Assembly: GCA_963734155.1 (NCBI GenBank)
Contig: CAVTGG010000002.1
Coordinates: 86,615-150,614 of the forward strand
Length of the DNA stretch: 64,000 nucleotides
From: an uncultured Acidobacteriota bacterium
GTDB lineage: Bacteria > Acidobacteriota > Thermoanaerobaculia > Gp7-AA8
Direction: 5' to 3'
The notes under the pieces were generated by a model. It was not told the origin of the DNA, did no database searches, and worked only from the letters and a program-made list of their open reading frames with translations. The translations under genes were made by a program, and so were the position numbers. How positions within the stretch are numbered: position 1 is the first letter of the stretch; each line of letters opens with the position of its first letter. This document shows, in pieces, positions 47,122 to 63,788 of this stretch.

Positions 47122-48057
47122 TTAGATCGCGCGGGAGCCCTTCTGATAGACCGCGGACACTTTGCCGTCCGTGAAAAAGACGTCGATCTTCAGCTCGGGA
47201 TACGACCAGCGCTCCTTGCCGTCCTTGTTCGAGATTTCCGGCTCGAGCGGCTCCAGATGCTTGCGTACCTGATCGGGGGTCATGCCGAGTTTCATGGTCA
47301 TGGCGAGGACGATTGAATTCATCCCTTCGGCCGGGTTCGCGACGGTGGCGTCGGCATTGAGCGGAGAACCGGTGAGCGCATACCGGGCGACGATCGCGCC
47401 GGTGCTGCTGTCCCAAACCCAGATGCCGCGCACCTTGCCGGAGACGGCGTGCTCGACCACGCGATGCTCGGCGGGATTGTCGATCGTGGCCGTGCTGGTC
47501 TTCACGCCGGTCGCGTTGCGGAGCGACTCGAGGTCGTCTTTCATCAGTTTCGGCGCGCTGTTCGGTCCGAGCTCCACCACGGCGAAGGACCGAAGCCGAT
47601 CCTTCGCCTCGGCGGCGACCGGCACGGTGAGCTCCAGCGTTCTCCCCAGAGTCTTATTCGGCACGCGAATGCCCCAGCGGTGCGTTTCGGTCGTGTTCAC
47701 GGTCACGACCGCGCCGAACGCCGTCTGGCCGAGAAACGAGCCCTTTCCTTCGGAGTCGGACGCGAGCGTCAACAGCGACTCGTCGCGCAGGTCGGTCCTC
47801 CCCTCGCGCATCGATTCGAGCACGAACGTCAGCTTCGTTCCTCCCTTTGCTTCATCAGGGCGCACCATCAGCGGATCGATCGAGAAAACATACAGACCCG
47901 CGGCCGGCGGCGTGCTTGAAGAAAGCGCCTTGTACACCTCGCCGAAGTTGGCGGGCTTGAAGTCCTTCGGCAGCGACTGCACCTTGACGTCGAACTGTTG
48001 TGCGAACAGAGGGAGGGCGAGGAGAGCGGCCGCCGCCGCGGTGAGGAACGTGCGCAT
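47122..48057 (-). CDS. Secreted hypothetical protein
   Basis: I prefer ATG 48057, which gives the signal peptide [21 protein letters not shown]. The ORF-track start 48180 would overlap the purL start region. Confidence 0.5.
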
Positions 48058-48100
48058 GATGGCGCGTAGAACCTTCGCCGCCGCCGATACAATCCACGCC

Positions 48101-50332
48101 ATGCAGGAGCCGCAAATCACGCCCGAGCTCATCGCTTCCCACGGTCTCACGCCCGACGAATACCAGCGCATCGTCGGCATCCTCGGCCGCGCGCCGAATT
48201 ACACCGAGCTCGGCATCTTTTCGGTGATGTGGTCGGAGCACTGTTCGTACAAATCGTCGCGCGTGCATCTGCGCAACTTCCCGACGAGCGGGCCGCGCCA
48301 GGCGGGCTCGCCGGGGTCAGTGGTGCAGGGCCCGGGCGAGAACGCGGGCGTGATCGACATCGGCGACGGGTGGGTGGCGGCGTTCAAGATGGAGTCGCAC
48401 AACCATCCGTCGTTCATCGAGCCGTACCAGGGCGCGGCGACGGGCGTCGGCGGAATCCTGCGCGACATTTTCACGATGGGCGCGCGCCCGATCGCCTGCC
48501 TCGACTCGCTCCGCTTCGGCGAGCTCGACGCGCCGCGCATGAAGTACCTCGTCGACGGCGTCGTGCGCGGCATCGGCGGCTACGGCAACTGCATCGGCAT
48601 CCCCACCGTCGGCGGCGAGACGTCGTTTCACTCGTCGTACAACGGCAACATCCTCGTCAACGTGTTCGCGTTGGGCGTGACGAAGCGCGAGAAGATTTTC
48701 AAAGGCACGGCGAGCGGCGTCGGCAATCCCGTGATCTACGTCGGCTCGAAGACGGGCCGCGACGGCATTCACGGCGCGACGATGGCCTCCGCGGAGTTCG
48801 ACGAAGCGTCGGAAGAAAAACGCCCGACCGTGCAGGTCGGCGATCCGTTCACGGAGAAGCTGCTGCTCGAGGCGTGTCTCGAGATCATGGACTCCGACGC
48901 AATCGTCGGCATCCAGGACATGGGCGCCGCGGGACTCACGTCGTCGTCGTTCGAGATGGCCGGCCGCGCGGGCACGGGGATCCGGCTGCAGCTCGACCGC
49001 GTGCCGGTGCGCGAGAGCGGCATGACGCCGTACGAGATCATGCTCAGCGAGTCGCAGGAGCGGATGCTGATCGTGGCCAAGCGCGGGCGCGAAGACGAGG
49101 TCGTGCGGACGTTCGAGAAGTGGGACCTCAACGCGTCGGTGATCGGCGAAGTGACGGAGACAGGCTTCGTCGGCGTGTACTGGGAAGAAGTGGAGATGGC
49201 GATGATTCCGGTCGATCCGGTGTCGACGCAGGCGCCGCTGTACGAGCGGCCGCTGGCGCGGCCTTCGATCACCCTCGAATCGACCGTTCCACGAGTGGAG
49301 AATCTCGATCATACCGACGCGCTCATGCGCCTCGTCGCCTCGCCGAATCTCTGCTCGAAGCATTGGATTTTCGAGCAGTACGACACGACCGTGCGCACGA
49401 ACACGGTCGCCGGTCCGGAGAAGCGCGACGCGGCGGTGATCCGCGTGAAGGAGATCGGACGCGCGCTCGCGATCACGTCGGATGTGAATCCGATCTATTG
49501 CTCGCTCGATCCGTACGAGGGCGGAAAACAGGCGGTCGCCGAAGCGGCGCGCAATGTCGCCGTTTCGGGCGCGAGGCCGGTGGCCATCACCGATTGTTTG
49601 AACTTCGGCTCGCCCGAGCGGCCGGAGATCATGTGGCAGTTCGCGGAGTGCATTCGCGGGATCAGCGACGCGTGCCGCGCGCTGGAAACGCCCGTCGTCT
49701 CCGGCAACGTTTCGTTCTACAACGAGACCGACGGACGCGCGATCCTTCCCACGCCGACCGTCGGCATGGTGGGCCTGATGGAGAGCGATCGCGATGGCTG
49801 CGGTCTTCACTTCGCCGACGCCGATCTCGACGTGATTCTCCTCGGCGAATCGCACGACGAGCTGGGCGGCTCCGAGTGGCAACAGCTGTTCGCGCCGAAC
49901 GTGACCGCCGCGCCGCCGCGCGTCGATCTCGCCCGCGAGAAATCACTGATCGAGCTGCTGCTGGCGCTGCACGACGCGAAGCTGCTGCGGAGCGCGCACG
50001 ACATTTCGAACGGCGGCCTCGCCGTCGCGCTCGCGGAGATGTCGGCGGGCGGCATCGGATGTCATGTCAACCTCGCCGTCGATTTGGACGCCGTTGCGCT
50101 GCTCTTCGGCGAGTCGCAGGGCCGCGCCGTCGTCGCGTGCAACGACGCGGCGCGTGTTCTCGAGCTTGCGAACCAGCACGGCGTTCCTGCGCAACGCATC
50201 GGCCACACCGCACACGGCGTGTTTCTCATCGAGCGCAACGGCGTTCCGCTCGTGCGCGCGACCGCACAGGAGCTGACGCGAATCTGGCGCAGCGCGTTCG
50301 AGCTGCTCCTCGGCGGGGTGGTGGCGCACTAG
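48101..50332 (+). CDS. purL: Phosphoribosylformylglycinamidine synthase subunit PurL
   Basis: It starts [53 protein letters not shown] at ATG 48101 and is 743 aa. The 1016-aa ORF-track call is a 5' run-on. Confidence 0.9.
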
Positions 50333-50432: not shown

Positions 50433-51854
50433 TCACCGCGTGAAAATTCGATCTCCCCATTCGAAGCGCACCGGCTCGCCTTTATCGTCGAAGACGAACT
50501 GCACGGCCTGCGGCTCGTCATCGAGAAAGTCGGCGATGAAAGCGTCGCCGCCCGTCGGGATGAGCTCGGCCTTCACCACGCCGAGCTGCGCGTACAAGCG
50601 TCCGCCGCTTTCCGTCACGTCGAGGCGTCCGAGGCGATCGTAGTGGAACGTGCCGGCGTAACGCGCGAGCGGACGTCCGGCCGTTTTGCGATCGGCGAGA
50701 CGCGCGTCCCATGGCGCGCGTTGCTCGCGCGACTTCTGCGCCGCAACGACGGCTTTCGCGATCGCGTCGTTCCACTTCGCGTCGAGGTTCGGCTTGCCGA
50801 GGAGGAGATCGTAGGCGTACATCGCCACGGCGTCGGCGACGGCGGCGCCGCCGTTGGAGAAGACGGCCACGCCGATGCGGCGATCGGGCATGAAGGAGAT
50901 GAACGAGTACGCGCCGCCGATGCCGCCGGGGCGATGCACGATCAGGTCGCCTTCGTAATCGCCGAGGTCCTCGCCGAGTCCCCACGCCCACCGATCGAGA
51001 TAGCGGAACCGCGCCTTGCGCGTCGTCTGCGCGGACTGCACCATGCGCACCGCTTTCTTCGGCAGGATGCCGTTGCCGTCGTTGATCATCGCGATGAGCC
51101 ACTTCGCGGTGTCGGCGCTCGTCGTGAACGTGCCGCCGGCCGGGCCCATCGTCTCGGGAAATTTCCCCTCGGTGCGCACGAACACGTTCGGCGCGGTGGA
51201 GCGATAAAAGCGTACGTACGGCGCACCCGCGGGCGGGAACGCGCTCGTCGTCGCGCTCATCCCGAGCGGCGCGAAGACTTTTGCCTCCGTGAGGTCCTGC
51301 CACTGCTGGCCGGTGACGCGGCGGATGACACGCGCAGCGATGTCGTAGCTCATGTTCGAGTAGGTCGAAGACTTGCGGGGCAGTTCGCGTGAGTACGTCG
51401 CGAGCAGGCGAAGCGCTTCCGCATCATCGACGTTGCCGAGCGCGCCGGCGCGAAAGTTCAGCGTGTTGTTGTCGAGGCCTGGACGCATGGCCAGAAAGTC
51501 GCGCAGCGAAAACCGTTTCGGATCGAGCGGCGGCGTCAGTTTCAATTCCGGCCAGAGCTCGCTCAGCGGTGCGTCGAGATCGATCTTCCCCTCGGTGGCG
51601 AGGATCGCGGCCATCATCGCCGTGAAGGCTTTCGTCGACGAGCCGATGTAGAAACGCGTGTCGGGCGTGACCGGCAGCTTCGCTTCGACGTCGCGCACTC
51701 CGAAGTCGCCGCGATAGATGACCTTGTCGTCTTTCACGACGACGACGGTCAGGCCGGGCGTCGTGCCGAGCTCGCGCATCGCTTTCTGCGCGAAGGCTTC
51801 GATCTGATTTGCGCGGACGTCGGCGAGGAGAAGAAGCGTGAGCAGGAGGTTCAT
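50433..51854 (-). CDS. Serine hydrolase (beta-lactamase family), secreted
   Basis: ATG 51854 gives MNLLLTLLLLADVRA.., with the SxxK motif IGSSTKAF. The 635-aa ORF-track call is a 5' run-on across the AraC gene. Confidence 0.75.
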   Translation of the reverse strand: MNLLLTLLLLADVRANQIEAFAQKAMRELGTTPGLTVVVVKDDKVIYRGDFGVRDVEAKLPVTPDTRFYIGSSTKAFTAMMAAILATEGKIDLDAPLSELWPELKLTPPLDPKRFSLRDFLAMRPGLDNNTLNFRAGALGNVDDAEALRLLATYSRELPRKSSTYSNMSYDIAARVIRRVTGQQWQDLTEAKVFAPLGMSATTSAFPPAGAPYVRFYRSTAPNVFVRTEGKFPETMGPAGGTFTTSADTAKWLIAMINDGNGILPKKAVRMVQSAQTTRKARFRYLDRWAWGLGEDLGDYEGDLIVHRPGGIGGAYSFISFMPDRRIGVAVFSNGGAAVADAVAMYAYDLLLGKPNLDAKWNDAIAKAVVAAQKSREQRAPWDARLADRKTAGRPLARYAGTFHYDRLGRLDVTESGGRLYAQLGVVKAELIPTGGDAFIADFLDDEPQAVQFVFDDKGEPVRFEWGDRIFTR

Positions 51855-51901
51855 GCGCGCATCATCGGTCGGCGGCGCGCGGATTTCTTGAACGTTTGAA
51901 A

Positions 51902-52594
51902 CTACGCGCGGGCCATGCGCCGGAACGCCGCGGGCGTGAGGCCCATGCAGCGGAGGAAGACGCGGTTCATGTGCGGCTGATCGCTGAATCCGCTGTCGAG
52001 CGCGATGTCGGCGAGCGGCGCGGCGGTCGAGCCGAGGCGGTGCGCGGCGGCGCGGACGCGCAGCTGCTGCACGTACTCGCGCGGACTGCAGCCCCATTGC
52101 AGGCGGAAGACACGCGCGAGGTAGACGCGATGCACGCCCAGCTCGCGCGCGACCTGCGGGACCGCGGGAAACGCCTCTTCGAGCATGCGCGCCGCGCGCG
52201 TGGCGATCACGCGATCGGTCGTGATCGGCGAGGGCAACGCGCCGACGAGATCGTCGACATCTTCTGCAACGTCCTCGCCGCCGAGAAAGCGCTTCGCGAC
52301 GCGCATCGCCGCGTTCGTCGCCGCGCCGAGGCGATGCCATGCGTAGCCGCGCAAGGGCAAGTCATCGCCGGCGGTTGTGTCGAGACAAATGATGCGCGCG
52401 GCGCCGAAGGCATTCGCGTGCATCACGCCCGCGGGCTTGACGATGATGTCGCCCGCGCAGCCCTCGTACGAAACGCCGCCCGACTCCTCGCGCATCGTCC
52501 CGCGCAAGAGGACGCTGATCTGCAGCTCGTCGTGCGCGTGACGCGGCATCAGCTCGCCCACGTCATAGCGCATGTCGCGAATGCGGAAGGTCAC
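51902..52594 (-). CDS. AraC family transcriptional regulator (cupin-like N-domain plus HTH)
   Basis: The C-terminal region reads ..YVQQLRVRAAAHRLGSTAAPLADIALDSGFSDQPHMNRVFLRCMGLTPAAFRR. Confidence 0.8.
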   Translation of the reverse strand: MTFRIRDMRYDVGELMPRHAHDELQISVLLRGTMREESGGVSYEGCAGDIIVKPAGVMHANAFGAARIICLDTTAGDDLPLRGYAWHRLGAATNAAMRVAKRFLGGEDVAEDVDDLVGALPSPITTDRVIATRAARMLEEAFPAVPQVARELGVHRVYLARVFRLQWGCSPREYVQQLRVRAAAHRLGSTAAPLADIALDSGFSDQPHMNRVFLRCMGLTPAAFRRMARA

Positions 52595-52669: not shown

Positions 52670-54241
52670 ATGAGCACACCGCCGCTACCGGTGATTCTCG
52701 AGATGCATCAGGCGGGGAAAGGAGACCTGCTCCGCATCGTCGGCGGCGGGCAGAGCATCATCATCGATTCCGGAACCGCGGATCGCAGCGAAAGACTTCG
52801 CCGGCTGCTGGCGGAAATGCCGTGTGAGCTGCTCGTGCTGACTCACCTCGACGCCGATCACTTCGGCGGCCTTCAGCAGCTGGTCCAGGAGCACTTCGAC
52901 GGCAAGGCCAACGAGGTCCGGTGGCCCGCGGAGATCGTGGTCAACGATTTCGAGCCGCGCGAGGCGGTGGAGTCGGTGCGCGCAGTCGTCGGTGCCGATG
53001 ACCCGATCAATCTCGATTCGTTGATCGCTCAGGCTCGCGAATGGCAGGCGGCGGGGCGCGAGTCGACGTCGGTGGTTACGTCGACGCGTGAACGGCGGCC
53101 ATGCCATCGACACGGACGACTCCGGCGATCATCGAAGCGGATGACGCGGCATTCGAGTATCTCGCTGCATCATCTCCGGAACAACCGCGACGATGGTTTG
53201 TCGAAGACGCATACGTCGTTGCGGACCTTCGACAAGCTTTCTCACGAATACGGCGATGAGGCAGCTCATCGACATGGTTCATCAGTTCGCAGAGGATGGT
53301 TCTTCAGAGAAGGCGGCAACGCATATCGCCAAAACGAACGCGTGTTTTTGCTCGACAGCGGCGCCGTACTGGTCACGCGGCGTTCTCAGACACGACGGCC
53401 CGGCATCTCCGTCTTCATCAACGATCCGTCGCTCGTCGATGGGACCGAAGGCACCATTCCAGCCGGCCTTCCGCCGCCGGTGCGCGGCCTTCTTCACCTG
53501 GCGCAGGAAGGGCCGCAGATTCTCGAATCCGTGAAGCTCGCGTCCGAAACCATGACTCTCATCGAAGCCCTCCGCAAGATCGTGGGGAAAGACAAGGTCA
53601 CATTCGCGCAGGTGGAAAAACGACCGCGAATCTCTGCGCTACACGACGCATTGATGCTGCATGTCGTGGGACCGGACGAACCGGAGCTGCGCGGGCTGCG
53701 AGAGAAGTGGCGAGAGATTCGCGAGCGCGGCCAAATTCATGTGGGCATGCGGCACACGGCATTCCTCGAGGCAACGTTTTTCGCCGCCGATGCAGGACGG
53801 TTCCGGATGGATACGTCGGTGACGAATCGATCGAGCATTCAGCTCATCGCGGATACGGCGCTCGGAAGAGCGGTCCTCACCGGAGATGGGCGCCCCGATA
53901 CGCTGGATCGCGTCGTCGAGACCCTGAGCTCGTTGCCGTCGCGGCGTTGCCTTGTATTCAAAGCCGCCCATCACGGGAGTGACCACAACATCGATCTCCG
54001 CCAGGATCCGAACAAGATTCTGAACCGGTTCCAGCCGAAGCAAATCTGGGTCAGCGGCGGCGACAAGTTCCATCCGGCGCGCGAATTCCTGCGTTACCTT
54101 CATGAGCAACGGCAGCATGTCCCATTCGAGATCGCGGTGACGAACGCGAATGAGAATGTGCGGGCGATGCAGCCGCGCCTGCCGATTCGACTCATGGAAG
54201 ACGACGCACCGTTCACCTGCGATCTCAATTCGCCGGCTTGA
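52670..54241 (+). CDS. MBL-fold (ComEC/Rec2-type) metallo-hydrolase-like protein with a long unrecognised insert; centre possibly frame-corrupted
   Basis: The N-terminal region reads ILEMHQAGKGDLLRIVGGGQSIIIDSG ... LLVLTHLDADHFGG (HxDxDH) and the C-terminal region reads VFKAAHHGSDHN. G+C is lower than in the neighbours. The 53090-53340 segment translates as an Arg/His/Ser-rich stretch in the open frame. Confidence 0.5.
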   Translation: MSTPPLPVILEMHQAGKGDLLRIVGGGQSIIIDSGTADRSERLRRLLAEMPCELLVLTHLDADHFGGLQQLVQEHFDGKANEVRWPAEIVVNDFEPREAVESVRAVVGADDPINLDSLIAQAREWQAAGRESTSVVTSTRERRPCHRHGRLRRSSKRMTRHSSISLHHLRNNRDDGLSKTHTSLRTFDKLSHEYGDEAAHRHGSSVRRGWFFREGGNAYRQNERVFLLDSGAVLVTRRSQTRRPGISVFINDPSLVDGTEGTIPAGLPPPVRGLLHLAQEGPQILESVKLASETMTLIEALRKIVGKDKVTFAQVEKRPRISALHDALMLHVVGPDEPELRGLREKWREIRERGQIHVGMRHTAFLEATFFAADAGRFRMDTSVTNRSSIQLIADTALGRAVLTGDGRPDTLDRVVETLSSLPSRRCLVFKAAHHGSDHNIDLRQDPNKILNRFQPKQIWVSGGDKFHPAREFLRYLHEQRQHVPFEIAVTNANENVRAMQPRLPIRLMEDDAPFTCDLNSPA

Positions 54242-55295
54242 TCACGCCGCGACACTCGCCGAAGCCGATCCGCGGCAGGCCTTCGCGCTCGCAGTACGCA
54301 CGCAGGATCACCTCGTCGCCGTCTTCGAGAAACTTCTGCCCCAGCTCGAGCAGGCATCCGGCCGACTCTTTCTCCGGGCCGGAGATCGTGCCGCTGGCGA
54401 GGAGGTCGGCGGGGCGCAGGTTGCAGCCGTTCGACGTGTGATGGGCGACGAGCTGGGCGACCGTCCAGTACATGTCGCGGAAGTTGCCGCGGCTGATTCG
54501 GGCGCCGTTCAGCCAGACTTCCACGGTGATGTCGAAGGCAACGTCGTCTTCGAGATACGGCAGCACCGGATCTTCGCGCTCCGACTTCACGCGATACGGC
54601 TCGAGCGCGTCGAGCGTGACGATCCATGGAGAGATGGACGTCGCAAAGTTTTTGGCGAGGAAGGGGCCGAGAGGCTGGTACTCCCACGCCTGGATGTCGC
54701 GCGCGGACCAGTCGTTGACGAGGCAGAAGCCGAAGACGTGCTCGAGCGCGTTTTTGACGCCGACCGGCTCGCCGAGCGAATTGCCGCGGCCGATGAACAT
54801 GCCCATTTCCAGTTCGTAGTCGAGCCGCTTCGATGGACCGAAGACGGGCGGCGCATTGGCGTCGTCGCGCGTTTGTCCGCTCGGACGTTTCACCGGCGTG
54901 CCGCTGACGACGATCGACGACGAGCGGCCGTGATAGCCGATCGGGATCCATTTGTAATTCGGCAGCAGCGGATTGTCGGGGCGGAACTTCGCGCCGACGC
55001 GCGTGGCGTGATGGATCGAGGCGTAGAAGTCGGTGTAGTCGCCGATCGCCGCAGGCAGCAGCATCGTCGCGTTGCGCATCGGGATCAGCTCGACGTTCGT
55101 ATCGAGCAGCTTGCGGATGCGCTGCTTCATTTCCAACGTCCTGCCGCTCGCCATGAACGTGTTGAGCGTCGGCTCACCGATCCACGGATGGAGGTCAAGG
55201 ATGTTGTCCTCGATGGCGGTGCAGACATGCGGCTCGCCGCCGGCGTCGAAGACGCCGAATGGCAGGTTCTCGATCGGAAAGTCGGTCACAGCCAT
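54225..55295 (-). CDS. fahA: Fumarylacetoacetase
   Basis: Recognised motifs are FPIENLPFGVF, GDYTDFYASIHHATRVG, IGYHGRSSSIVVSG and DYELEMG. Confidence 0.8.
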   Translation of the reverse strand: MAVTDFPIENLPFGVFDAGGEPHVCTAIEDNILDLHPWIGEPTLNTFMASGRTLEMKQRIRKLLDTNVELIPMRNATMLLPAAIGDYTDFYASIHHATRVGAKFRPDNPLLPNYKWIPIGYHGRSSSIVVSGTPVKRPSGQTRDDANAPPVFGPSKRLDYELEMGMFIGRGNSLGEPVGVKNALEHVFGFCLVNDWSARDIQAWEYQPLGPFLAKNFATSISPWIVTLDALEPYRVKSEREDPVLPYLEDDVAFDITVEVWLNGARISRGNFRDMYWTVAQLVAHHTSNGCNLRPADLLASGTISGPEKESAGCLLELGQKFLEDGDEVILRAYCEREGLPRIGFGECRGVIKPAN

Positions 55296-55954
55296 CCCAA
55301 CTCTTTCAAATCATCGATCGGCTCTTCGAACGAGCACGAGCCGAACGAGAGCGCGAATTCTCTTCGCGTCTTCGCCAGATCTTCGGTGGTGATTTCCTTT
55401 CCGCGCCAGCTCACGGTTTCGTCCGTGAACGTGAATGCGTTCGCGTCTTCTTCGCGAAGGATTTCTTCGGCGTGATGGATCATCGCCGCGGCGATGAAGA
55501 CGTTCACGAAGCCATGCATCGCGCCGTTGCGAATCGGATGGTGCAGGCCGGCTGTCGCCTTGAAGGCTACGCCCGCTTCTTTGCACGCACGGAGAAATCC
55601 GCGACTTGTTCGACTCGAGGGAACGGCATCCCCACCGGTACGGATCTTCGCGCGGAGTCCGCGCTTCGCGAGCTCCGCGATCAGCGCGAAGTCTGTGATC
55701 TCGACGAACGCGTGCTCGCGCGCCTGCTCGAGACTCTTCACCTCGTCGACGCCGAGGACAGTCAACGGAAAGTCCGATGGCACTTCGTGCGCGCGTTCTT
55801 TGGGAACGACGAAAGGGCCGAGCGCCCACGCGTACTCGCCGTCGCGATAGCGCGCGTAATTGCGCACCGCGTCCGGCATCGACAGCGCCGCGGGCGGAAA
55901 GAGGCCGGCGTAGTCGATGAGATGGTCTAGCAGGACACGAATCGAGTTGGTCAT
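55286..55954 (-). CDS. Conserved-looking hypothetical protein embedded in the homogentisate operon (222 aa)
   Basis: ATG 55954 overlaps the hmgA stop (ATGA), and the 3' end overlaps the fahA start by 10 nt. It reads [24 protein letters not shown]... No GST-like or other family motif was recognised. Confidence 0.55.
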
Positions 55955-57205
55955 TCGGGTCGGAACTGTTTGCTCAGCCCCTGCCAGCATTGCCAGTAGT
56001 CGCGCTGCAGCGCCGGCGTCTCCATGGCGAAGCGCGTCGGATGGATGATGAAGCGGCTCTCGAACATGAACGCGAGCGTCTCGCCGAGGTAGCGAGGCTC
56101 GAGGTCGGCGCAGGACGCGGCATCGAATGTTGTGGAATCGGGACCGTGGCCGGACATGCAGTTGTGCAGGCTCGCGCCGCCGGGCACGAAGCCTTCCGCC
56201 TTCGCGTCGTAGGTTCCGAAAATCAATCCCATATATTCATTCATGATATTGCGATGAAAATAGGGCGGCCTAAATGTGTCCTCGGCGACCATCCAGCGCG
56301 GCGGGAAGATCACGAAGTCGCAGTTCGCGGTGCCGGGGAACTCGCTCGGCGACGTCAGCACGGTGAAAATCGACGGATCGGGATGATCGAACGAGACCGT
56401 GTTGATGACGTTGAAGTTGCCGAGATCGTACTTGTATGGGGCGTAATTGCCGTGCCAGCCGACGACGTCAAGCGGCGAGTGATCGATCTTCGCCGCCCAG
56501 AGGCGTCCGCCGAACTTCGCGAGCAGCGTGAAGTCGCCTTCGCGGTCTTCGTAGGCGGCGACGGGCGTGAGGAAGTCGCGCGGATTCGCGAGTCCGTTGG
56601 AGCCGATCGGGCCGAGGTCGGGCAAACGAAACGGCAATCCGAAGTTTTCGCAGACATAGCCGCGAGCGACGTCGAGCTCGACGCGGAACTTCATGCCGCG
56701 CGGGATGACCGCGATCTCGCCCGGCTTCGCCTCGATGACGCCGAGCTCCGTCTCTGATCGATCAACTCGCCGCGCTCGGGAACGATGAGCAACTCGCCAT
56801 CGGCGTCATAGAAGAAGCGGTCGGTCATCGAGCGATTCGCGCTGTAGATATGAATGCCGATTCCCGCGTTGCCGCCGATCGTGATCAGTCCTTCGACGAA
56901 ATCGCGCGGCTCGTCCGGCAACGGCATCGGATCCCATCGCAACTGCGTCGGCGGCGTCGGGACTTCATCGAACGCGCCGCGCAACCATCCCGGATCCGCT
57001 TCCGCAAACGGCTCGTGCAGCACGCTCGGACGAATGCGATACAGCCACGAGCGCTTCTGCAGGTGCCGCGGCGCGGTGAACGGCGATCCCGAAAATTGCT
57101 CCGCGTACAGCCCGTGCTTCACACGCTGCGGCGAATTTCCCCGCGCGGGCAGCACGCCCGGCAGCGCCTCGGTGGCGAATTCGTTGTTGAAGCCCGACTG
57201 ATACA

Positions 57206-57206
<1 letters not shown>
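55951..57206 (-). CDS. hmgA: Homogentisate 1,2-dioxygenase, apparent -1 frameshift near 56750-56760
   Basis: The N-terminal part is [27 protein letters not shown]... (within ORF 56691..57530). The C-terminal ORF 55951..56694 reads ..[24 protein letters not shown]... The junction reads ..VPERGELI / [23 protein letters not shown]. Confidence 0.85.
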
Positions 57207-58366
<1,160 letters not shown>

Positions 58367-58456
58367 AGGTGAAACGTGTCTTCCGAATCGCGATCGACGG
58401 GTGTAGGCTGAGAATTAGATCCTCAGGTCCATCTAGCCATTTCAGAGGCCAAAAGC

Positions 58457-61400
58457 ATGCCGTGCCTGCCGACACGCGTGATTGGTATTGCGTTTGTGGC
58501 AACCGCAGCCGCAACGCTGGGGTGCTGCCGGCATGAACAAAAATCGCCGACAGCAGAACTATTGTCCGCTTATGCCGCGCAGACCTCGCGGCCATTCACG
58601 TTGCGCCTCAGCGAGCTTCCCTATGCACCACCGCCACGCGTGACGCGCGGCGGCGACTCGAGCGTCGCGCTGTCTCTTCAGTCGGCGGCGCACGCCGTTC
58701 TAGCTGCGCCTCTCACCAATCGCCACGATGTCGACTCCGCCAAAGTTCGCGCCTCTGCGTCGATGATCCTCGGTCAGCCGGCCAGTGCCGTATCCGCGCT
58801 GAAGAAAGAATTGGAGACACATTCGAAGGACGGTGGACTCTGGAACGATTACGCGGTCGCACTATATGAGGTTGGGAGGCGGGACAACGACCCGCAGAGT
58901 CTACCCGCCGCTCTGGCAGCCGCAGACCGGGCCGCTGCACTCTCCGGAGGTTCGGCCGACGCAGCGTTCAATCGTGCTTCGATTCTCGACGCCCTTGCAC
59001 TGCGCGCCGCGGCGTCCGTCGCCTGGAAACACTATCTCGATCTCGATCCGGGCTCACAGTGGGCCGATGAGGCGCGTCGAGCGCTTGCCGACAATCAACG
59101 ACCGGATCAGACAAAGCGTTGGCGTACCGAACTACCGGCGCTCGAAGGCGCCGTGGCGGCGGGCGATACGAGAGCAGTGGACGCGGCGATCGTAATGTTT
59201 CCTCAACAAATCAGAACATGGGGCGAGGGCGAGTATTTGTCGCGATGGGCGGAACTTCGTCTCAGTGGCAAGGACGCCGAAGCACGACAGGCATTGAACA
59301 TCGCCCGTATGTTTGGAGATCGGCTTGCTGCAAAAAAGGGCGAGATGCTCTTGCAGAACGCGGTTGCGGCCATCGATCGCGAATCACCGGTCGGTATGGA
59401 TGCACTAGCACGCGCACATATTCTTTATAAACGCGCGCGGCTCCTCGTAAGAGACCGGAAGCCTTCAGAAGCGGACCCGATTTTCACTGAGGCAGAACGT
59501 GCATTCGCAGGCGCCGGAAGTCCGATGGAGCTGGTGACGCTCTACTATCACGCCGTCGCCGTGTTCGACCAGAGGAGCGCGGAGCGTGCCATCGAATATC
59601 TCGACAGAATCGAAGCGCGAATTCGCCGCGATTTCCTGGTACTGAATGCCCAAGTGTTAGGGGAACGCGCCCGCATCATGGGTCGCCGCGACGATCCCTA
59701 TGGAATGCTGGCAACTGCCACCAAGGCCAGCGAAATCTTCGCACGCCTCGGCGAAACTGAAAATGCGGCATGGAACCGTATCGCCGTCGCGTCCATGCTG
59801 TTCTCGCTCGGACGGCCGAAAGAAGCGTGGCGCGTTCGGAGAGAAACATTCGAAGTGGCTCGCGAAACCGGATCCGCGGCTCTTCTTCAGCAGTCCCTCC
59901 ACAATACCGTGGGCGCGGAAATGGCCGAAGGGCATCTTGACGCCGCGCAGTCGCTGCTCGATGTCCTGATCCAGACAGAAGGACCCTCGCCCTTGCTCCG
60001 TTTCAGTACGCATCTTTCGCGGGCGTTCGTGGCCTATCGTCTTGGTGAGAAACAGAGCGCCACAATATTCGCCCAATTACAGACGGCCACCGAGGCGGTG
60101 GAGGATCCGGCCCTACGCGATGAGGCGCGCGATCGTCTCCGATTTTTCGAAGCAGTCGCCAACGGCAATACAGAGCCCGATCGCGCAATACGTCTTCTCG
60201 ACGAGACCATCGCGTTTCGGCGGCAAACGCGGCGACTCTCCCAGCTTGCAACCGCACAATTCGAGCGGGCGCGTACGCTGCGTTCCGACGGAATGCTGGA
60301 TGAAGCCGCCGCCACGTTGAATGCCGCTCTTGAAACACTGGAGACTCAACGAGAACGGGTTCCCGGTGAGGATTTTCGCGATTCGTATTTCGCGTCGGCA
60401 GAGGACGTTTGCAGTGAGCTGGCTGAAGTACACCTATCGCGTGGAAGACCGGAGCAGGCGTTCAGCGCCATCGATCGTTGCCGGGCACGCACACTTCTCG
60501 ATCTCATGAAGCACCCCCCGGGCACTTCGCCTGCGGTTACGCTCGACGAAGTCCAGCAGAAGATCCCCGACGGCACAGCACTCGTCCTGTACGCGCCGCT
60601 CGCGGACCAGCTCATGATTTGGTGCGTAACACGGACGAAGCGTGAATTCCGAAGCATCTCCGTACCACGGCTGGCGATCGAGTCCGGTCTTGAGGGTTTG
60701 CGAACGGCGATGCAGCAACGCGACGGCAATCGTATCGACGCGACGGTCGAACGACTGAGCGATCTGCTCACGAAGCCGATTGATACAATGGTTGGCATCC
60801 CGGAGCGACTCGTGATCGTTCCGGATGCGTTGCTGGCAGCAGTGCCTTTCTCGATTCTTCAGGACCGGGCCGGCCACGCGCTCGTCGAGCGATCCACGAT
60901 CTCGCTGGTACCGAGTGCAGCAGTCTTCACACGCGCGCACCCTCGGCACGAACCGCCGCGCTCAGCACTGGTCTTGGGAGATCCCTCATTCCTCGCCGAT
61001 GTTGCCGGCCCGCTGGAACGCCTGGTCGCGGCGCGGGACGAAGCGCGCGGAATCGGCGCCATGTACCGGCAATCAGTCGTATTGACGGATGACGCCGCGA
61101 CCGCCGTGCGCTTTCTCGAGCTCGCGCCTCAGCAGCAGATGATTCACCTCGCGACGCACGCGTTGTTATCGGCGCGCGACGCGCGAGACTCTGCGTTGGC
61201 ACTTGCACCATCCGGCTCCGACAACGGGATGCTCACTCTTCAACGCATTGCCTTGATGAAGCTGCAGCCGAATTCGATCGTGGTGCTGGCGGGCTGTAAG
61301 ACAGGCGCATTCGGCGGCGGCCGTGGCTCCATTCGAAGCCTCTCGTACGCCTTTCTTGCGGCAGGCAGCTATGCTTCCGTTGGAAGCCTCTGGGACATCG

Positions 61401-61570
61401 ACGATGAAACGAGTCGCTCATTTTCATTCGCGTTTCACCAGCGGATCCTTCGCGCAATGACGCCTGCAAGCGCGCTGCGCGATACACAACTGCAAATGCG
61501 AAGATCCCACGATCCACGCCTGAGCCACCCCGCCGCGTGGGCTGGTTATCAATTGTACGCGATCCAATAA
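58457..61570 (+). CDS. TPR-repeat CHAT-domain (caspase-like) protease, possible lipoprotein
   Basis: It is 1037 aa. The N-terminal MPCLPTRVIGIAFVATAAATLGCC is signal/lipobox-like, followed by ~700 aa of TPR-like helices. The C-terminal CHAT domain has MIHLATHA (61139..61162) and VVLAGCKTG (Cys codon 61295..61297). Confidence 0.8.
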   Translation: MPCLPTRVIGIAFVATAAATLGCCRHEQKSPTAELLSAYAAQTSRPFTLRLSELPYAPPPRVTRGGDSSVALSLQSAAHAVLAAPLTNRHDVDSAKVRASASMILGQPASAVSALKKELETHSKDGGLWNDYAVALYEVGRRDNDPQSLPAALAAADRAAALSGGSADAAFNRASILDALALRAAASVAWKHYLDLDPGSQWADEARRALADNQRPDQTKRWRTELPALEGAVAAGDTRAVDAAIVMFPQQIRTWGEGEYLSRWAELRLSGKDAEARQALNIARMFGDRLAAKKGEMLLQNAVAAIDRESPVGMDALARAHILYKRARLLVRDRKPSEADPIFTEAERAFAGAGSPMELVTLYYHAVAVFDQRSAERAIEYLDRIEARIRRDFLVLNAQVLGERARIMGRRDDPYGMLATATKASEIFARLGETENAAWNRIAVASMLFSLGRPKEAWRVRRETFEVARETGSAALLQQSLHNTVGAEMAEGHLDAAQSLLDVLIQTEGPSPLLRFSTHLSRAFVAYRLGEKQSATIFAQLQTATEAVEDPALRDEARDRLRFFEAVANGNTEPDRAIRLLDETIAFRRQTRRLSQLATAQFERARTLRSDGMLDEAAATLNAALETLETQRERVPGEDFRDSYFASAEDVCSELAEVHLSRGRPEQAFSAIDRCRARTLLDLMKHPPGTSPAVTLDEVQQKIPDGTALVLYAPLADQLMIWCVTRTKREFRSISVPRLAIESGLEGLRTAMQQRDGNRIDATVERLSDLLTKPIDTMVGIPERLVIVPDALLAAVPFSILQDRAGHALVERSTISLVPSAAVFTRAHPRHEPPRSALVLGDPSFLADVAGPLERLVAARDEARGIGAMYRQSVVLTDDAATAVRFLELAPQQQMIHLATHALLSARDARDSALALAPSGSDNGMLTLQRIALMKLQPNSIVVLAGCKTGAFGGGRGSIRSLSYAFLAAGSYASVGSLWDIDDETSRSFSFAFHQRILRAMTPASALRDTQLQMRRSHDPRLSHPAAWAGYQLYAIQ

Positions 61571-61582
61571 GGAGGAGGAGTC

Positions 61583-62341
61583 ATGCTGCCCACTGCCACG
61601 ACCTACGATTACAACATCTATTTCTATGGCCTGATCTGCCACATGGGCGACGACAAACTTTATAAGCATTTCGCAGCCATGGTACGCGACAAGGAGCACA
61701 CACCGAAGATCTACGACAAACAAAGCGAGACGCCAATTAAAGACTCCAACGGCGTCAAATTCAGCTTCGAATATCCGCCGACGACATTCTCGATCTCCGA
61801 TGCGGTGACTAGCGGCGAATTTCGCCGGTTTGTACCGTCGCTTCATGAACTCATGGGTGGACATCCGCGACTCAACATTCAAGAATTTGCAATTCCAGTC
61901 TACTATCCTGCCTCAGGCGATCACCAGCACAGCGTGCTCACTATTACAGATTTCTATCCCCACCAAGGATATTACCTGCGTGGCGGTCAGCGCGTCTGGG
62001 GTCCCGATTGTGTTGCCTGCATGACGCAGCTTACGCTGACCACGACCAACAACACCGTCTACATAGTCAATATCAAGAAGGATGGGTCTTATGACAAACT
62101 TGCGACCCTAACGGCCGCCGATAATAATTATGCCATCATCTCCAACGAAGCACCCCTAGGGCACCACCACGGCCACGTAGCAAAGTACGGCAGTCTCTTG
62201 CTTGAAGAAGACAGCAACCTGACGATCCTGAAGACGGGTTGTCCGCTCTACTCTGACCGGTCCTGCCGCGCGATTTTGGAGGTCTGCCAGTACGCTCACC
62301 GCGATGACGACCTCGAGTGCAGCAATAATCAGTGGCCCTGA
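61583..62341 (+). CDS. Hypothetical Cys/His-rich protein (252 aa), translationally coupled to the CHAT gene
   Basis: The ATG lies 12 nt after the CHAT TAA stop and is preceded by AAGGAGGAGG. The first 120 nt are 60/120 G+C by hand count. Motifs are ICHMGDD, CVAC, GHHHGH and a C-terminal C-x7-C-x6-C-x10-C. No family was recognised. Confidence 0.55.
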   Translation: MLPTATTYDYNIYFYGLICHMGDDKLYKHFAAMVRDKEHTPKIYDKQSETPIKDSNGVKFSFEYPPTTFSISDAVTSGEFRRFVPSLHELMGGHPRLNIQEFAIPVYYPASGDHQHSVLTITDFYPHQGYYLRGGQRVWGPDCVACMTQLTLTTTNNTVYIVNIKKDGSYDKLATLTAADNNYAIISNEAPLGHHHGHVAKYGSLLLEEDSNLTILKTGCPLYSDRSCRAILEVCQYAHRDDDLECSNNQWP

Positions 62342-62375: not shown

Positions 62376-63788
62376 ATGCCCAACGACAAGCTCCACGAAG
62401 AATGCGGCGTCTTCGGCGTCCTCGGCCGCGCGGACGCCGCAAACCTCGTCTACCTCGGGCTATACGCGCTCCAGCACCGGGGCCAGGAGAGTGCGGGGAT
62501 CGCGTCCGTGGGCGAGGACAAAAGGATCCTTTCCGAGAAGGAGATGGGGTACGTCGCGGACGTGTTTACGCAGGAGCGGCTGGCGCGGTTGCCGGGGGAT
62601 GTGGCGATTGGGCATGTGCGGTACTCCACCGCCGGCGGGTCGATGCTTTGCAACGCGCAGCCGATTGTGGCGATGACGTCCAAGGGGCAGATTGCGGTGG
62701 CGCACAACGGGAACCTCACGAACGGCAATGAGTTGCGCAAGCAGCTCGAGGATGAAGGGGCGATTTTCAACTCGACGGCGGACAGCGAGCTGTTCGTGCA
62801 TTTGATCGCGCGGTCGAAGGCGACGGATCTCGAGGGGGCGCTCATCGATGCGCTCTCGCGCGTGCAGGGGGCGTATGCGATTGCGTTGCTCGCCCCCGGC
62901 AAGATCTTCGCGGCGCGCGATCCGTATGGGTTCCGGCCGCTGGTGCTCGGGAAGTTGGACGATGTGCACACGATTTCGTCGGAGACGTGTGCGTTCGATC
63001 TGATCGGTGCGGAGACGGTGCGGGAGATTGGCGCGGGAGAGATCATCGCCATCGACCACAGCGGTGTCAGTGTGGTGAGGCATGCGCGTGCGGAGCGCGA
63101 GGCGCGGTGCATTTTCGAGCATGTGTACTTCGCGCGGCCGGACTCCGTCGTCTTCGGCAACAGCGTCGCGGACGTGCGGCAGCGCTTCGGCGCGCAGCTG
63201 GCGCGCGAGCACCCGGTGCCCGCCGACATCGTCGTGCCCGTTCCGGACTCCGGCGTCTTCGCGGCGCTGGGCTACGCGCAGCAGGCGGGGCTGCCGTTTC
63301 AATATGGGCTCGTACGCAATCACTACGTCGGGCGGACGTTCATCGAGCCGAAGCAGACCATTCGCAGCTTCGGGGTGAAGGTGAAGTTGAATCCTGTCCG
63401 CGAGCTCGTAAACGGCAAGCGCATCGTGCTGATCGACGACTCGATCGTGCGCGGCACGACGTCGAAGAAGATCGTGCGCATGCTGAAAGACTCCGGCGCC
63501 TCCGAGGTGCACATGCGCATCTCGTCGCCGCCGACGTCGTGGCCGTGTTACTACGGCATCGACACGCCGGAGCGGAAAGACTTGATCGCGAGCACGCAGT
63601 CGCTCGACGAGATTCGCTCGTTCATCGAGGCGGACTCGCTCGGCTATCTGAGCGAAGATGGTCTCCTCGAAGCGGTGCGCAACGGCGACGATCCGCGCTC
63701 GCTATACTGCACGGCATGCTTCACCGGGAAGTACCTGAAAGCCGGATCACTCGGTTCCGCCGCCTCCATGAATCCGGCTGTTTCGTGA
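62376..63788 (+). CDS. purF: Amidophosphoribosyltransferase
   Basis: It reads MPNDKLHEECGVFGV (the N-terminal Cys nucleophile after processing), with a Ntn glutaminase domain and a PRTase motif VLIDDSIVRGTT. The ORF-track start 62304 is a run-on. Confidence 0.9.
   Translation: MPNDKLHEECGVFGVLGRADAANLVYLGLYALQHRGQESAGIASVGEDKRILSEKEMGYVADVFTQERLARLPGDVAIGHVRYSTAGGSMLCNAQPIVAMTSKGQIAVAHNGNLTNGNELRKQLEDEGAIFNSTADSELFVHLIARSKATDLEGALIDALSRVQGAYAIALLAPGKIFAARDPYGFRPLVLGKLDDVHTISSETCAFDLIGAETVREIGAGEIIAIDHSGVSVVRHARAEREARCIFEHVYFARPDSVVFGNSVADVRQRFGAQLAREHPVPADIVVPVPDSGVFAALGYAQQAGLPFQYGLVRNHYVGRTFIEPKQTIRSFGVKVKLNPVRELVNGKRIVLIDDSIVRGTTSKKIVRMLKDSGASEVHMRISSPPTSWPCYYGIDTPERKDLIASTQSLDEIRSFIEADSLGYLSEDGLLEAVRNGDDPRSLYCTACFTGKYLKAGSLGSAASMNPAVS

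Follow-up and report, generated by a model that had tools for sequence, protein, structure and literature searches.

A putatively exported, DdvA-like TPR-CHAT protease and its leaderless all-beta neighbour form a conserved gene pair in Acidobacteriota

The window, a 64,000-nucleotide stretch of DNA from an uncultured Acidobacteriota bacterium, carries two adjoining forward-strand genes: one (58457-61570) for a TPR-CHAT caspase-fold protease of 1037 amino acids, classified from its ORF, Pfam and PDB sequence matches and orthologues as DdvA-like and exported, and another (61583-62341) for a leaderless protein of 252 amino acids. The reading that we favour, with a probability of about 0.42, is that of a DdvA-like envelope sensor-protease and its cytoplasmic cognate protein. 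Both genes are real, with homologues whose protein sequences are conserved in at least 20 further loci, and the pair is a fixed chromosomal feature, situated between purL or hppD and purF, not a recently inserted defence island.

The two reading frames and the 12 nt between the TAA stop codon of the CHAT gene (61568-61570) and the ATG of the partner at 61583, with its AGGAGG site, are present in the sequence as the earlier note had them. The stop codon overlaps this strong Shine-Dalgarno site (61568-61582), the junction reading TAAGGAGGAGGAGTC-ATG, and the overlap is predicted to couple translation of the partner to that of the CHAT gene. No terminator-like site was found between the two. In 20/20 other independent loci, namely those recovered with a partner homologue and each checked for an adjoining CHAT gene, that homologue comes immediately after a CHAT orthologue; in one of them (L003) the CHAT gene is present as a 3′ remnant only, with the partner after it. 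The two genes are between −4 and +88 nt apart, tandem partner paralogues occur in five loci (L006, L009, L011, L012 and L017), and the pair is so far confined to Acidobacteriota. Partner homologues thus consistently adjoin TPR-CHAT genes, and the supposition that the two form an obligate unit, predicted to be co-expressed, was borne out. The pair evolves much faster than its flanks, with identities between loci of 74-95% for PurF, 32-71% for CHAT and 26-57% for the partner. Partner and CHAT both diverge rapidly and in parallel (Pearson 0.71), a parallel suggestive of co-adaptation.

The CHAT domain was assigned by Pfam (PF12770, 176.9 bits, E=8e-52) to residues 763-1034 (60743-61558), and matches to TPR were weak. 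The codons at 61145-61147, 61157-61159 and 61295-61297, from which a His/Cys dyad had been read, specify H897, H901 and C947. Of these, H901 and C947 are shared by all 12 full-length orthologues and align to the dyad H862/C907 of DdvA, with a His-Cys spacing of 46 versus 45 residues, but H897 is not invariant; the catalytic pair stands as H901 and C947, and its invariance predicts an active protease.

A signal peptide or membrane anchor, possibly a lipoprotein signal (MPCLPTR-VIGIAFVATAAATLGCC-R; 58457-58531), was predicted from hydropathy and charge. The 15-residue Kyte-Doolittle (KD) window of this segment is 2.05, and an equivalent hydrophobic N-terminal segment exists in all 12 full-length orthologues (KD 1.95-3.4); across orthologues the flanking charge mostly favours an N-in orientation, and in about half of them a Cys ends the segment. 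Downstream of the anchor, phmmer homology and motif alignment delimit an N-domain (58574-59089) with the motif RPxxxRLxxxPYAPxxxxxRG and TPR-like helices. It is homologous to the extracytoplasmic domain of zf-HC2 anti-sigma factors encoded next to the CHAT gene in five loci (L007, L009, L017, L022 and L024): three anti-sigma queries matched the window protein with E=6e-16, 4e-17 and 2.5e-7, and other orthologues down to 1e-28. The sole sequence relative of the CHAT protein in the PDB is DdvA (8rot_B, E=4e-8), with a collinear match of residues 13-211 to DdvA 81-278, the latter being a weak alignment of the N-domain to the DdvA linker/scaffold, and of residues 874-1014 to DdvA 835-974. DdvA is a ZAS anti-sigma factor of Myxococcus xanthus, the TPR-CHAT domain of which was localised to the periplasm by cryo-EM (PMC11506125). 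Since every full-length orthologue has the N-terminal signal or anchor, and given the collinearity with the periplasmic part of DdvA and the homology to the anti-sigma domain, the CHAT protease is very probably exported.

The resemblance to DdvA extends from the TM helix to the C-terminus: in both proteins a single N-terminal TM segment or anchor is followed by scaffold, TPR and CHAT, with the dyad aligned, and related acidobacterial loci have genes for an ECF-like sigma factor and a zf-HC2 anti-sigma factor. In the five loci named above, a pair of ZAS anti-sigma (zf-HC2/TM/TPR) and ECF-like sigma genes adjoins CHAT; the anti-sigma products share the CHAT N-domain and align to DdvA residues 6-278, and sigma, anti-sigma, CHAT and partner genes are on one strand with stops and starts overlapping. 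The sequence relation is distant, however, and the window protein lacks the cytoplasmic zinc-binding, sigma-binding domain, beginning instead at the anchor; the acidobacterial anti-sigma factor, where present, is a separate gene duplicating the scaffold domain only (a ‘split DdvA’), and no CBASS or CRISPR regulon is near the pair. No sigma or anti-sigma homologue was found within the 64 kb of the window, and such neighbours occur in 5 of about 13 informative loci, so a signalling role is an extrapolation here. In the single DdvA-like locus inspected (L025; 65% identity to the DdvA fragment that served as query), CHAT is followed by a protein of about 104 aa of unknown nature and an ORF of 286 or more aa, an order agreeing with the described ddvA operon (an unknown protein followed by a C25-type peptidase); the partner HMM matched neither ORF (E about 0.8).

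The partner belongs to a family of at least 118 representative clusters, for which searches of Pfam, NCBIfam, PADLOC, PHROGs and PDB sequences gave no match. The AlphaFold (AF2) model is confident (pLDDT 92.9, pTM 0.91), and Foldseek found no neighbour of it in the PDB (best E 0.03, TM < 0.2) or BFVD. In agreement with the earlier view that the protein is of no named family, we regard it, on the basis of this model, as a representative of an undescribed, probably all-beta family of about 250 aa and no recognisable fold. The motifs ICHMGDD, CVAC, GHHHGH and C220-x7-C228-x6-C235-x10-C246 singled out earlier are all present, but family-wide conservation within them is limited to H20, C143, H198, C220 and C246. 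Across the family G16, H39 (61697-61699; 90/90 members), C246 and P252 are invariant, N188 is nearly so, and H20, H198 and E245 are conserved at strand ends. The protein always terminates exactly at Pro252, in the motif E-C-[GS]-N-[TS]-x-[WY]-P-COOH (here ECSNNQWP; 62315-62338), and this C-terminus is packed into the fold in the model. It is preceded by a low-confidence loop of variable length (221-240, pLDDT 66-67), and a long β-hairpin spans residues 117-154. Two Cys pairs co-vary, C143-C220 (phi 0.86) and C183-C228 (phi 0.78), ranking 7 and 1 among 23,084 pairs by mutual-information covariation (MI-APC), and at least one of them is kept in almost every member. No signal peptide, leader, TM or hydrophobic segment was detected in any of 90 family members, and there is no room for an upstream start extending the window protein. 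The caution, voiced in the earlier note, that the protease would be outside the cytoplasm and the partner within it has therefore gained in weight.

If so, the CHAT protein would act outside the cytoplasm as the sensor-protease in a pathway of envelope signalling. Where a lineage has adjacent genes for the ECF-like sigma and ZAS anti-sigma factors, the periplasmic domain of the latter would be a paralogue of the CHAT N-domain; the two proteins would probably pair through it as a ‘split DdvA’, with CHAT clipping the anti-sigma factor in trans, in the manner of the site-1-type cleavage that has been proposed for DdvA. The partner would remain in the cytoplasm, metal-stapled by His39/Cys246 and one of the two alternative Cys pairs, and bind its cognate protease stoichiometrically.

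The gene order of an exported cysteine protease, then a co-transcribed, leaderless, beta-rich cytoplasmic protein, is shared with staphopain-staphostatin (scpAB, sspBC) and SpeB-Spi, where the staphopain and SpeB genes each have, as their immediate 3′ neighbour, the gene of a leaderless staphostatin or of Spi; to our knowledge it is the only arrangement that naturally explains the topology of the acidobacterial pair. By this analogy our single best guess for the partner, itself a doubtful one, would be a safety catch or chaperone dedicated to the protease before its export. Staphostatins are lipocalin-like barrels of about 110 aa without metal sites, which partner papain-fold proteases in Firmicutes, and the partner has no fold match; thus, the analogy is one of organisation only. 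Some features count against the favoured reading. Strictly invariant His, Cys and Asn residues are more in keeping with the active site of an enzyme than with an inhibitor under co-evolution, and the paired gain and loss of cysteines, a classic disulfide signature, would point to an extracytoplasmic partner, which would favour the alternative in which the protease cuts it.

That alternative goes back to the earlier note. CHAT would cut the partner, for instance in the loop 221-240, and thereby trigger some activity, pore formation being one example. We regard this as unlikely, although obligate adjacency, predicted translational coupling, the intact dyad, the loop ahead of the conserved C-terminus, the long hairpin and the disulfide-like covariation, which would place the partner with the protease, are all compatible with it. 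It is topologically awkward: cleavage demands that both proteins share a compartment, and the signal or anchor of 12/12 CHAT orthologues is set against the lack of a leader or TM segment in all 90 partners. The proposal of a cytoplasmic protease cutting a neighbour-encoded effector, like Craspase or gasdermin systems, was consequently not supported. As with bacterial gasdermins and their adjacent caspase-like or CHAT proteases, a beta-rich protein of about 250 aa with a flexible loop before a conserved C-terminal segment stands beside a caspase-fold protease; bacterial gasdermin structures exist in the PDB, but the Foldseek comparison, with no neighbour in the PDB or BFVD, gave no gasdermin-, Csx30- or Pepco-like match, and the acidobacterial protease is predicted to be extracytoplasmic and encoded at a fixed chromosomal locus, not in a defence island. 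Precedents for substrates encoded beside their protease are on record (PMC12642450, PMC10028731), among them type III-E Craspase (Csx29 cutting Csx30), which likewise combines a TPR-CHAT protease with a protein of otherwise unknown family (PMC10028731), the logic of protease and neighbour-encoded cognate being common to both. Csx29, however, is cytoplasmic and bound to gRAMP/Cas7-11, and is absent from the PDB sequence matches of the window protease; no cas genes or CRISPR repeats are present here, and the partner resembles no PDB chain in sequence or fold. Protease-effector modules with Pepco, EACC1, MBL or alpha/beta-hydrolase also join a protease to a small uncharacterised neighbour, and Pepco itself is small and beta-rich, its C-terminal tail being critical for function (Evans et al. 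2025 preprint, PMC12642450). Yet Pepco has 117 aa and its proteases, from Actinobacteria and cyanobacteria, are fused to STAND or other sensors (PMC12642450), whereas the acidobacterial pair has no NTPase sensor and no match to PADLOC defence models above noise, and its partner has 252 aa, a C-terminus packed into the modelled fold and a compartment apparently different from that of the protease.

We consider it similarly improbable that the partner, although co-transcribed with the sensor-protease, neither binds it nor is cut by it and works on its own as a metallo- or thiol-enzyme, or as the effector of the same regulon, with His39/Cys246/Asn188 as its active or metal site. Its compact, confidently predicted single domain, with His, Cys and Asn positions that vary little or not at all and the conserved H20, H198 and E245, would suit such a function, and output genes are common in ECF sigma operons, as the co-oriented genes of the five loci recall. 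On the other hand, the partner was away from a CHAT gene in 0/20 loci, is never fused to another domain among the members and loci examined, resembles no enzyme family or fold, and diverges in parallel with CHAT.

The chromosomal setting bears on two further explanations. Upstream lies hppD (57206-58366, reverse strand, Pfam), the first gene of a divergent homogentisate operon, and downstream purF (62376-63788, forward strand; amidophosphoribosyltransferase, Pfam GATase_6/7 and Pribosyltran); purL (47282-50332, forward strand; 80% identical to purL of L007 by phmmer) is the ancestral upstream neighbour in other lineages. The order hppD operon/CHAT/partner/purF or purL...CHAT/partner/purF recurs in lineages with 26-57% partner identity. 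The hppD/CHAT junction is seen again in L011 and L027/L028, purL lies 5′ of CHAT in both L007 (directly) and L009 (at about 3 kb), and purF follows the partner directly in 10 other independent loci, with no terminator-like site found between the two in the window. A functional tie to purine biosynthesis, such as control of PurF, is nevertheless very improbable: the pair persists without adjacent purF in L001, L002, L003, L007, L013 and L021, an exported protease would hardly regulate a cytoplasmic enzyme, GC3 sets the pair apart from purF by about 0.2 in every lineage, and purF identity does not track that of the partner (r=0.09). The lower G+C noted before was confirmed (CHAT 0.611 and partner 0.526 vs 0.642 for the window; GC3 0.64 and 0.65 vs 0.84-0.87 in purF, hppD and purL), and the deficit recurs in every related locus, so that it is intrinsic to the pair and no mark of recent transfer. 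A recently acquired, mobile anti-phage island, to which this composition, toxin-antitoxin neighbours (HepT in L002, PIN in L009 and L027) and an Avs1a/LmuA-like MBL gene 4 kb upstream in the window might hint, is largely refuted by synteny: site and GC3 offset are the same in lineages with only about 30-40% module protein identity, the MBL gene is absent from all other loci, the module is not seen to be bounded by an integrase, repeat or tRNA, and IMG/VR viral contigs and PLSDB plasmids yielded no copy of it. The earlier idea of horizontal insertion was not supported. The purF reading frame is alternatively readable from position 62304.

The gene pair near the 3' end of the window consists of a 1037-aa ORF (58457-61570, plus strand) and a 252-aa ORF (61583-62341, plus strand), both placed as in the earlier note, the observations of which are confirmed while its interpretation, a horizontally inserted protease with a cognate substrate or effector, is only partly supported. 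Direct reading of the sequence confirmed the 12-nt gap between the stop of the CHAT gene and the ATG of its partner: the TAA is embedded in TAAGGAGGAGGAGTC-ATG, and a strong ribosome-binding site precedes the start codon of the partner. No terminator-like site was found between CHAT, partner and purF, and an Rfam search of the window for a riboswitch or leader RNA gave no match. Ten regions upstream of CHAT genes were compared for a conserved promoter and yielded no robust motif. A weak GGTCC(N2)TC(C/T)A element precedes the CHAT start in the window (58430-58445) and, at ~25-35 nt upstream, in three related loci (L001, L010 and L024); present in four loci and lacking a robust alignment across the ten upstream regions, it may be a chance match.

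Pfam assigns residues 763-1034 of the larger protein to the CHAT family PF12770 (E=8e-52; score 176.9 bits, cutoff 24) and also gives weak TPR matches, in line with the TPR-CHAT assignment proposed at first reading. The codons then named as a His/Cys dyad encode H897, H901 and C947. H901 and C947 are invariant in 12 of 12 full-length orthologues and align with H862 and C907 of DdvA, the Myxococcus xanthus anti-sigma factor with a TPR-CHAT domain, whereas H897 is not invariant. By both domain and dyad, the window protease is a member of the CHAT family. All 12 orthologues open with a positively charged stretch followed by a 15-21-residue hydrophobic segment (Kyte-Doolittle (KD) 1.95-3.4). This segment ends with a Cys in about half of them (...ATLGCC in the window protein), which could be a lipoprotein mark; those without the terminal Cys look like signal anchors.

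The sole PDB sequence match of the window CHAT protein is DdvA itself (8rot_B, E=4e-8). The alignment is collinear, with query residues 13-211 corresponding to DdvA 81-278 (TM helix and linker/scaffold) and 874-1014 to 835-974 (CHAT core). Together with hydropathy and flanking charge, it points to a single TM helix followed by a predicted extracytoplasmic scaffold, TPR and CHAT region. DdvA is a ZAS anti-sigma factor with a ~900-residue TPR-CHAT domain that is periplasmic and dimeric by cryo-EM, and it has been proposed to act as a site-1 protease, cutting its own linker in trans (PMC11506125). Pfam detected no zf-HC2 domain (the zinc-binding anti-sigma domain, ZASD) on our CHAT polypeptide, in which the hydrophobic segment is preceded by just 7 residues.

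In five related loci, zf-HC2 is carried by a separate protein: a zf-HC2/TM/TPR anti-sigma gene accompanies the CHAT gene in L007, L009/L010, L017, L022 and L024. Those three with long enough contigs also encode an ECF-like sigma of 272-282 aa, translationally coupled to the anti-sigma (L009, 3183-4771; L024, 2147-3759; L007, 13192-14927); the 64-kb window was searched for sigma and anti-sigma homologues and contains none. These sigma proteins are unusually long, barely match Sigma70_r2 and are highly alike (phmmer E about 1e-130 to 1e-140), and a conserved leader, TTCGTCTAGAATC(G)C..CACCG, lies ~60 nt upstream of their start codons. The post-TM domain of the anti-sigma is homologous to the post-anchor N-domain of the CHAT proteins (E=6e-16, 4e-17 and 2.5e-7 with the window protein, and down to 1e-28 with other orthologues); the two have the motif RPxExRLxGFPYAP..RG in common, and the anti-sigma aligns with DdvA residues 6-278 in one stretch. 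The anti-sigma loci thus resemble a split DdvA, one protein having the order ZASD-TM-scaffold and the other anchor-scaffold-TPR-CHAT. A zf-HC2 domain has to lie in the cytoplasm, which places the shared domain outside it and is independent support for export of the CHAT protein. The earlier caveat that a signal at the CHAT N-terminus would place the protease outside the cytoplasm is thus borne out by hydropathy, flanking charge, DdvA collinearity and the domain shared with the anti-sigma. The window protein resembles DdvA in its dyad and TM-scaffold-TPR-CHAT order but differs in having no ZASD and no adjacent sigma gene in the window; it probably works like DdvA, yet does not belong to the DdvA-type anti-sigma factors. 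Judged by L025, a locus with a 65%-identical DdvA-like fragment, the gene that follows ddvA (MXAN_7287), considered as a homologue of the partner, is none: the 104-aa and 286-aa neighbour ORFs in L025 did not match the partner HMM.

The partner had been described as belonging to no recognisable family, and the 252-aa sequence indeed has no match in Pfam, NCBIfam, PADLOC or PHROGs. An exhaustive profile/HMM search of 1.84 billion representatives recovered a family of at least 118 clusters (53 at E<=1e-10). Members are nearly all 236-315 aa long, and in none of the 118 clusters is there a fusion to another domain. A word-index search of 5.8 billion clusters under-reported the family (four relatives, or 5 and later 12 matches, against 118 clusters), a first metagenome scan for relatives gave no match, and an alignment of 83 sequences was too diverse for deriving search patterns. 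No Pfam domain was found in 83 scanned members, family profiles retrieved only noise from PDB sequences, and 10 of 10 members checked are metagenomic and either unnamed or annotated as 'hypothetical protein'; the companion family is previously undescribed. Every member starts with M-x(2-5)-[IV][YF]FxGLICH and ends with E-C-[GS]-N-[TS]-x-[WY]-P-stop. G16, H39, C246 and the terminal P252 are invariant, and N188 (98%), N248, E245, H20 and H198 are highly conserved. H198 is the part of the previously noted GHHHGH motif that is conserved, the remainder being mostly peculiar to the window partner.

With a 90-sequence alignment, AlphaFold2 gave a confident model of the partner (pLDDT 92.9, pTM 0.91), uncertain at residues 221-240 only; a run with 5 sequences was unusable (pLDDT 36). 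The predicted structure consists almost wholly of beta strands, among them a long hairpin (117-133/136-154) and a C-terminal strand; there are two short helices besides. Residue pairs consistent with the hairpin are among the top couplings in the alignment and are thus independent evidence for the model. Two Cys pairs are gained and lost jointly, C143-C220 (phi 0.86) and C183-C228 (phi 0.78), ranking 7th and 1st, respectively, among 23,084 column pairs by mutual-information covariation (MI-APC), and at least one of the two is kept in almost every member. As reported for the window protein in the earlier note, there is no signal peptide or TM segment: no leader or hydrophobic segment was found in 90 family members (best 15-residue KD value 0.89 in the window partner), and there is no room for an upstream start that would supply a signal peptide, the extended ORFs being hydrophilic. 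Protease and obligate companion therefore appear, as judged from their sequences, to reside on opposite sides of the membrane.

Foldseek comparison of the partner model with 350,542 PDB chains and BFVD returned no neighbour (best E about 0.03-0.05, TM <0.2), and thus no gasdermin-, Csx30- or Pepco-like match, nor one to any other solved fold, was detected; the idea that the partner might have a gasdermin, Csx30 or toxin fold found no support. The pair is not Craspase, since neither cas/CRISPR features nor a Csx30-like partner was detected: the window has no match to the CRISPR-DR or any other Rfam family, the gene lists of related loci contain no cas genes, and Csx30, the partner of Csx29, has no counterpart here, as the companion matches nothing in the PDB by sequence or by Foldseek. 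Nor is it, by its predicted fold, a gasdermin system: among the 350,542 PDB chains there was no match at E<=1e-3. Against PADLOC-DB v2 defence models, the CHAT protein gave only noise-level BovA matches (E 0.018) and the partner none; paralogue B and the DdvA-operon neighbours were likewise without match. We found no literature on CHAT proteins in Acidobacteriota.

In the reading that we favour, with a probability of about 0.4 as a whole, the CHAT protein would be an envelope sensor-protease of the DdvA kind and the partner a cytoplasmic, metal-stapled protein that binds its cognate protease. Two of the metal ligands would come from the invariant H39 and C246 and the other two from one of the two alternative Cys pairs, which would explain why at least one pair is kept in nearly every member. 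Staphostatins and Spi are leaderless and encoded directly downstream of exported cysteine proteases. Our pair resembles theirs in gene order, the leaderless partner and the predicted exported protease, a likeness read from sequence, and on this precedent we tentatively suggest that the partner might be a safety catch or chaperone for unexported protease.

A true protease-substrate or protease-effector pair seems unlikely: the disulfide-like Cys covariation of the partner and its flexible 221-240 loop would suit a cleaved protein, whereas the missing leader would keep it from the protease. We also doubt that the conserved His, Cys and Asn residues belong to an autonomous enzyme that merely shares a regulon with the protease. 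There is, further, a rather small chance that the partner is the first member of a new protein fold and at the same time the real output of a periplasmic caspase-like protease. It could be a leaderless, disulfide-stapled protein that reaches the envelope by an unknown path and, once cleaved, becomes active, and so a new class of protease-gated effector, or it could be the cytoplasmic half of a new trans-membrane relay replacing the DdvA anti-sigma domain. In both cases, the pair would be a signalling or defence module that has gone unrecognised, at a locus that throughout Acidobacteriota is hypervariable yet fixed in position.

The genomic setting was examined in 20 further independent loci from contigs with homologues, GTDB genomes (two Thermoanaerobaculia MAGs and one Acidobacteriota MAG) and JGI metagenomes, all ORFs of which were scored with the partner HMM and the window CHAT, purF and purL. 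In 20 of 20, the partner lies directly downstream, on the same strand, of an orthologous ~1030-aa CHAT gene (of which L003, a short soil contig, retains a 3' remnant only), with gaps of -4 to +88 nt, and the adjacency seen in the window is thus conserved. Five loci have two tandem partner paralogues (29-48% identity in the four pairs compared). The window's junction between the hppD (homogentisate) operon and CHAT recurs in L011 and L027/L028. A purine-related function is very improbable for the pair, which has purF immediately 3' in the window and 10 other loci, and purL adjoining upstream in L007, nearby in L009 and 8 kb upstream in the window (47282-50332).

The lower G+C noticed originally is real (CHAT 0.611 and partner 0.526 against 0.642 for the window), and GC3 is 0.64 and 0.65, respectively, against 0.84-0.87 for purF, hppD and purL. 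The deficit relative to purF (0.08-0.25) is seen in every lineage examined; it is therefore a standing property of the two genes and no trace of recent transfer, and plausibly stems from low expression and weak codon bias. No relatives were found in IMG/VR or PLSDB, searched for phage or plasmid carriage. Given the recurrent synteny and the GC3 deficit across lineages, the proposed horizontal insertion is not supported, and a recent mobile defence island, largely refuted by the synteny, is hardly credible. Window purF is 76-88% identical to purF of other loci, Acidobacteriota MAGs included, which makes an acidobacterial origin of the window the most likely one. Identities between loci are 74-95% for purF, 32-71% for CHAT and 26-57% for the partner; those of CHAT and partner correlate (Pearson 0.71, Spearman 0.30), those of purF and partner do not (r=0.09). 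As a module, then, the pair evolves fast yet keeps its place in the chromosome.

To our knowledge, TPR-CHAT proteases, widespread as they are, are barely understood beyond separase, Craspase and the single DdvA structure. The locus described here represents a stand-alone or split DdvA-like TPR-CHAT protein, predicted to be periplasmic and coupled to a companion family without recognisable fold. A DdvA-like, predicted periplasmic TPR-CHAT protein thus occurs on its own across a major soil phylum, and in some lineages the anti-sigma function appears to be split onto a separate protein sharing the scaffold domain by which DdvA dimerises, a natural test for the site-1 cleavage in trans that has been proposed. 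From this locus, too, an obligate companion family of 118 or more clusters can be defined, and its confident predicted structure has no PDB or BFVD neighbour. Finally, low G+C and a protease/unknown pair between core operons need not mean a mobile defence island.

Some loci deviate in their surroundings. L003 (= L015) is a 1.2-kb soil contig on which (positions 1-285) the 5' end of purF, over ~110 nt with 83% identity to window 62383-62493, runs straight into the final ~160 nt of CHAT; a complete partner gene and then an ORF other than purF come next. Either the contig is an assembly chimera, or the locus has been rearranged, with loss of most of CHAT. Directly 3' of purF, L027 (12328-13735) and L028 (5698-7105) encode an uncharacterised 231-aa protein and a 235-aa YEATS/pYEATS-TIR_2 protein, the latter gene being defence-like and beside the module. 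Some loci also have toxin-antitoxin genes beside the module (PIN in L009 and L027, HepT in L002).

Elsewhere in the window, a 523-aa MBL-fold ORF (52670-54241, plus strand) partly matches MBL proteins of anti-phage systems, namely Avs1a in NCBIfam (E=4.5e-17, well short of the family cutoff) and LmuA (E=7e-22), RTasMBL and Avs1a in PADLOC. Its GC3 is 0.72, it has no protease, STAND or SMC neighbour and it is missing from all related loci; it may be a defence-type nuclease that stands alone or is a remnant. It was considered as the protease substrate, as in MBL-protease modules, and rejected because of this absence and of the opposite-strand operon between it and the pair. Between purL and the MBL ORF lies a gene for a 635-aa serine beta-lactamase/PBP-like protein (PF00144 and DUF3471; 50433-52340, minus strand), and the 247-aa and 338-aa plus-strand ORFs overlapping it look like spurious antisense frames. 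The homogentisate pathway operon has a further, uncharacterised member (55286-55990, minus strand), a 234-aa ORF without Pfam domain that is flanked by the fumarylacetoacetase and homogentisate dioxygenase genes and is kept at the same position in L027 with 69% identity.
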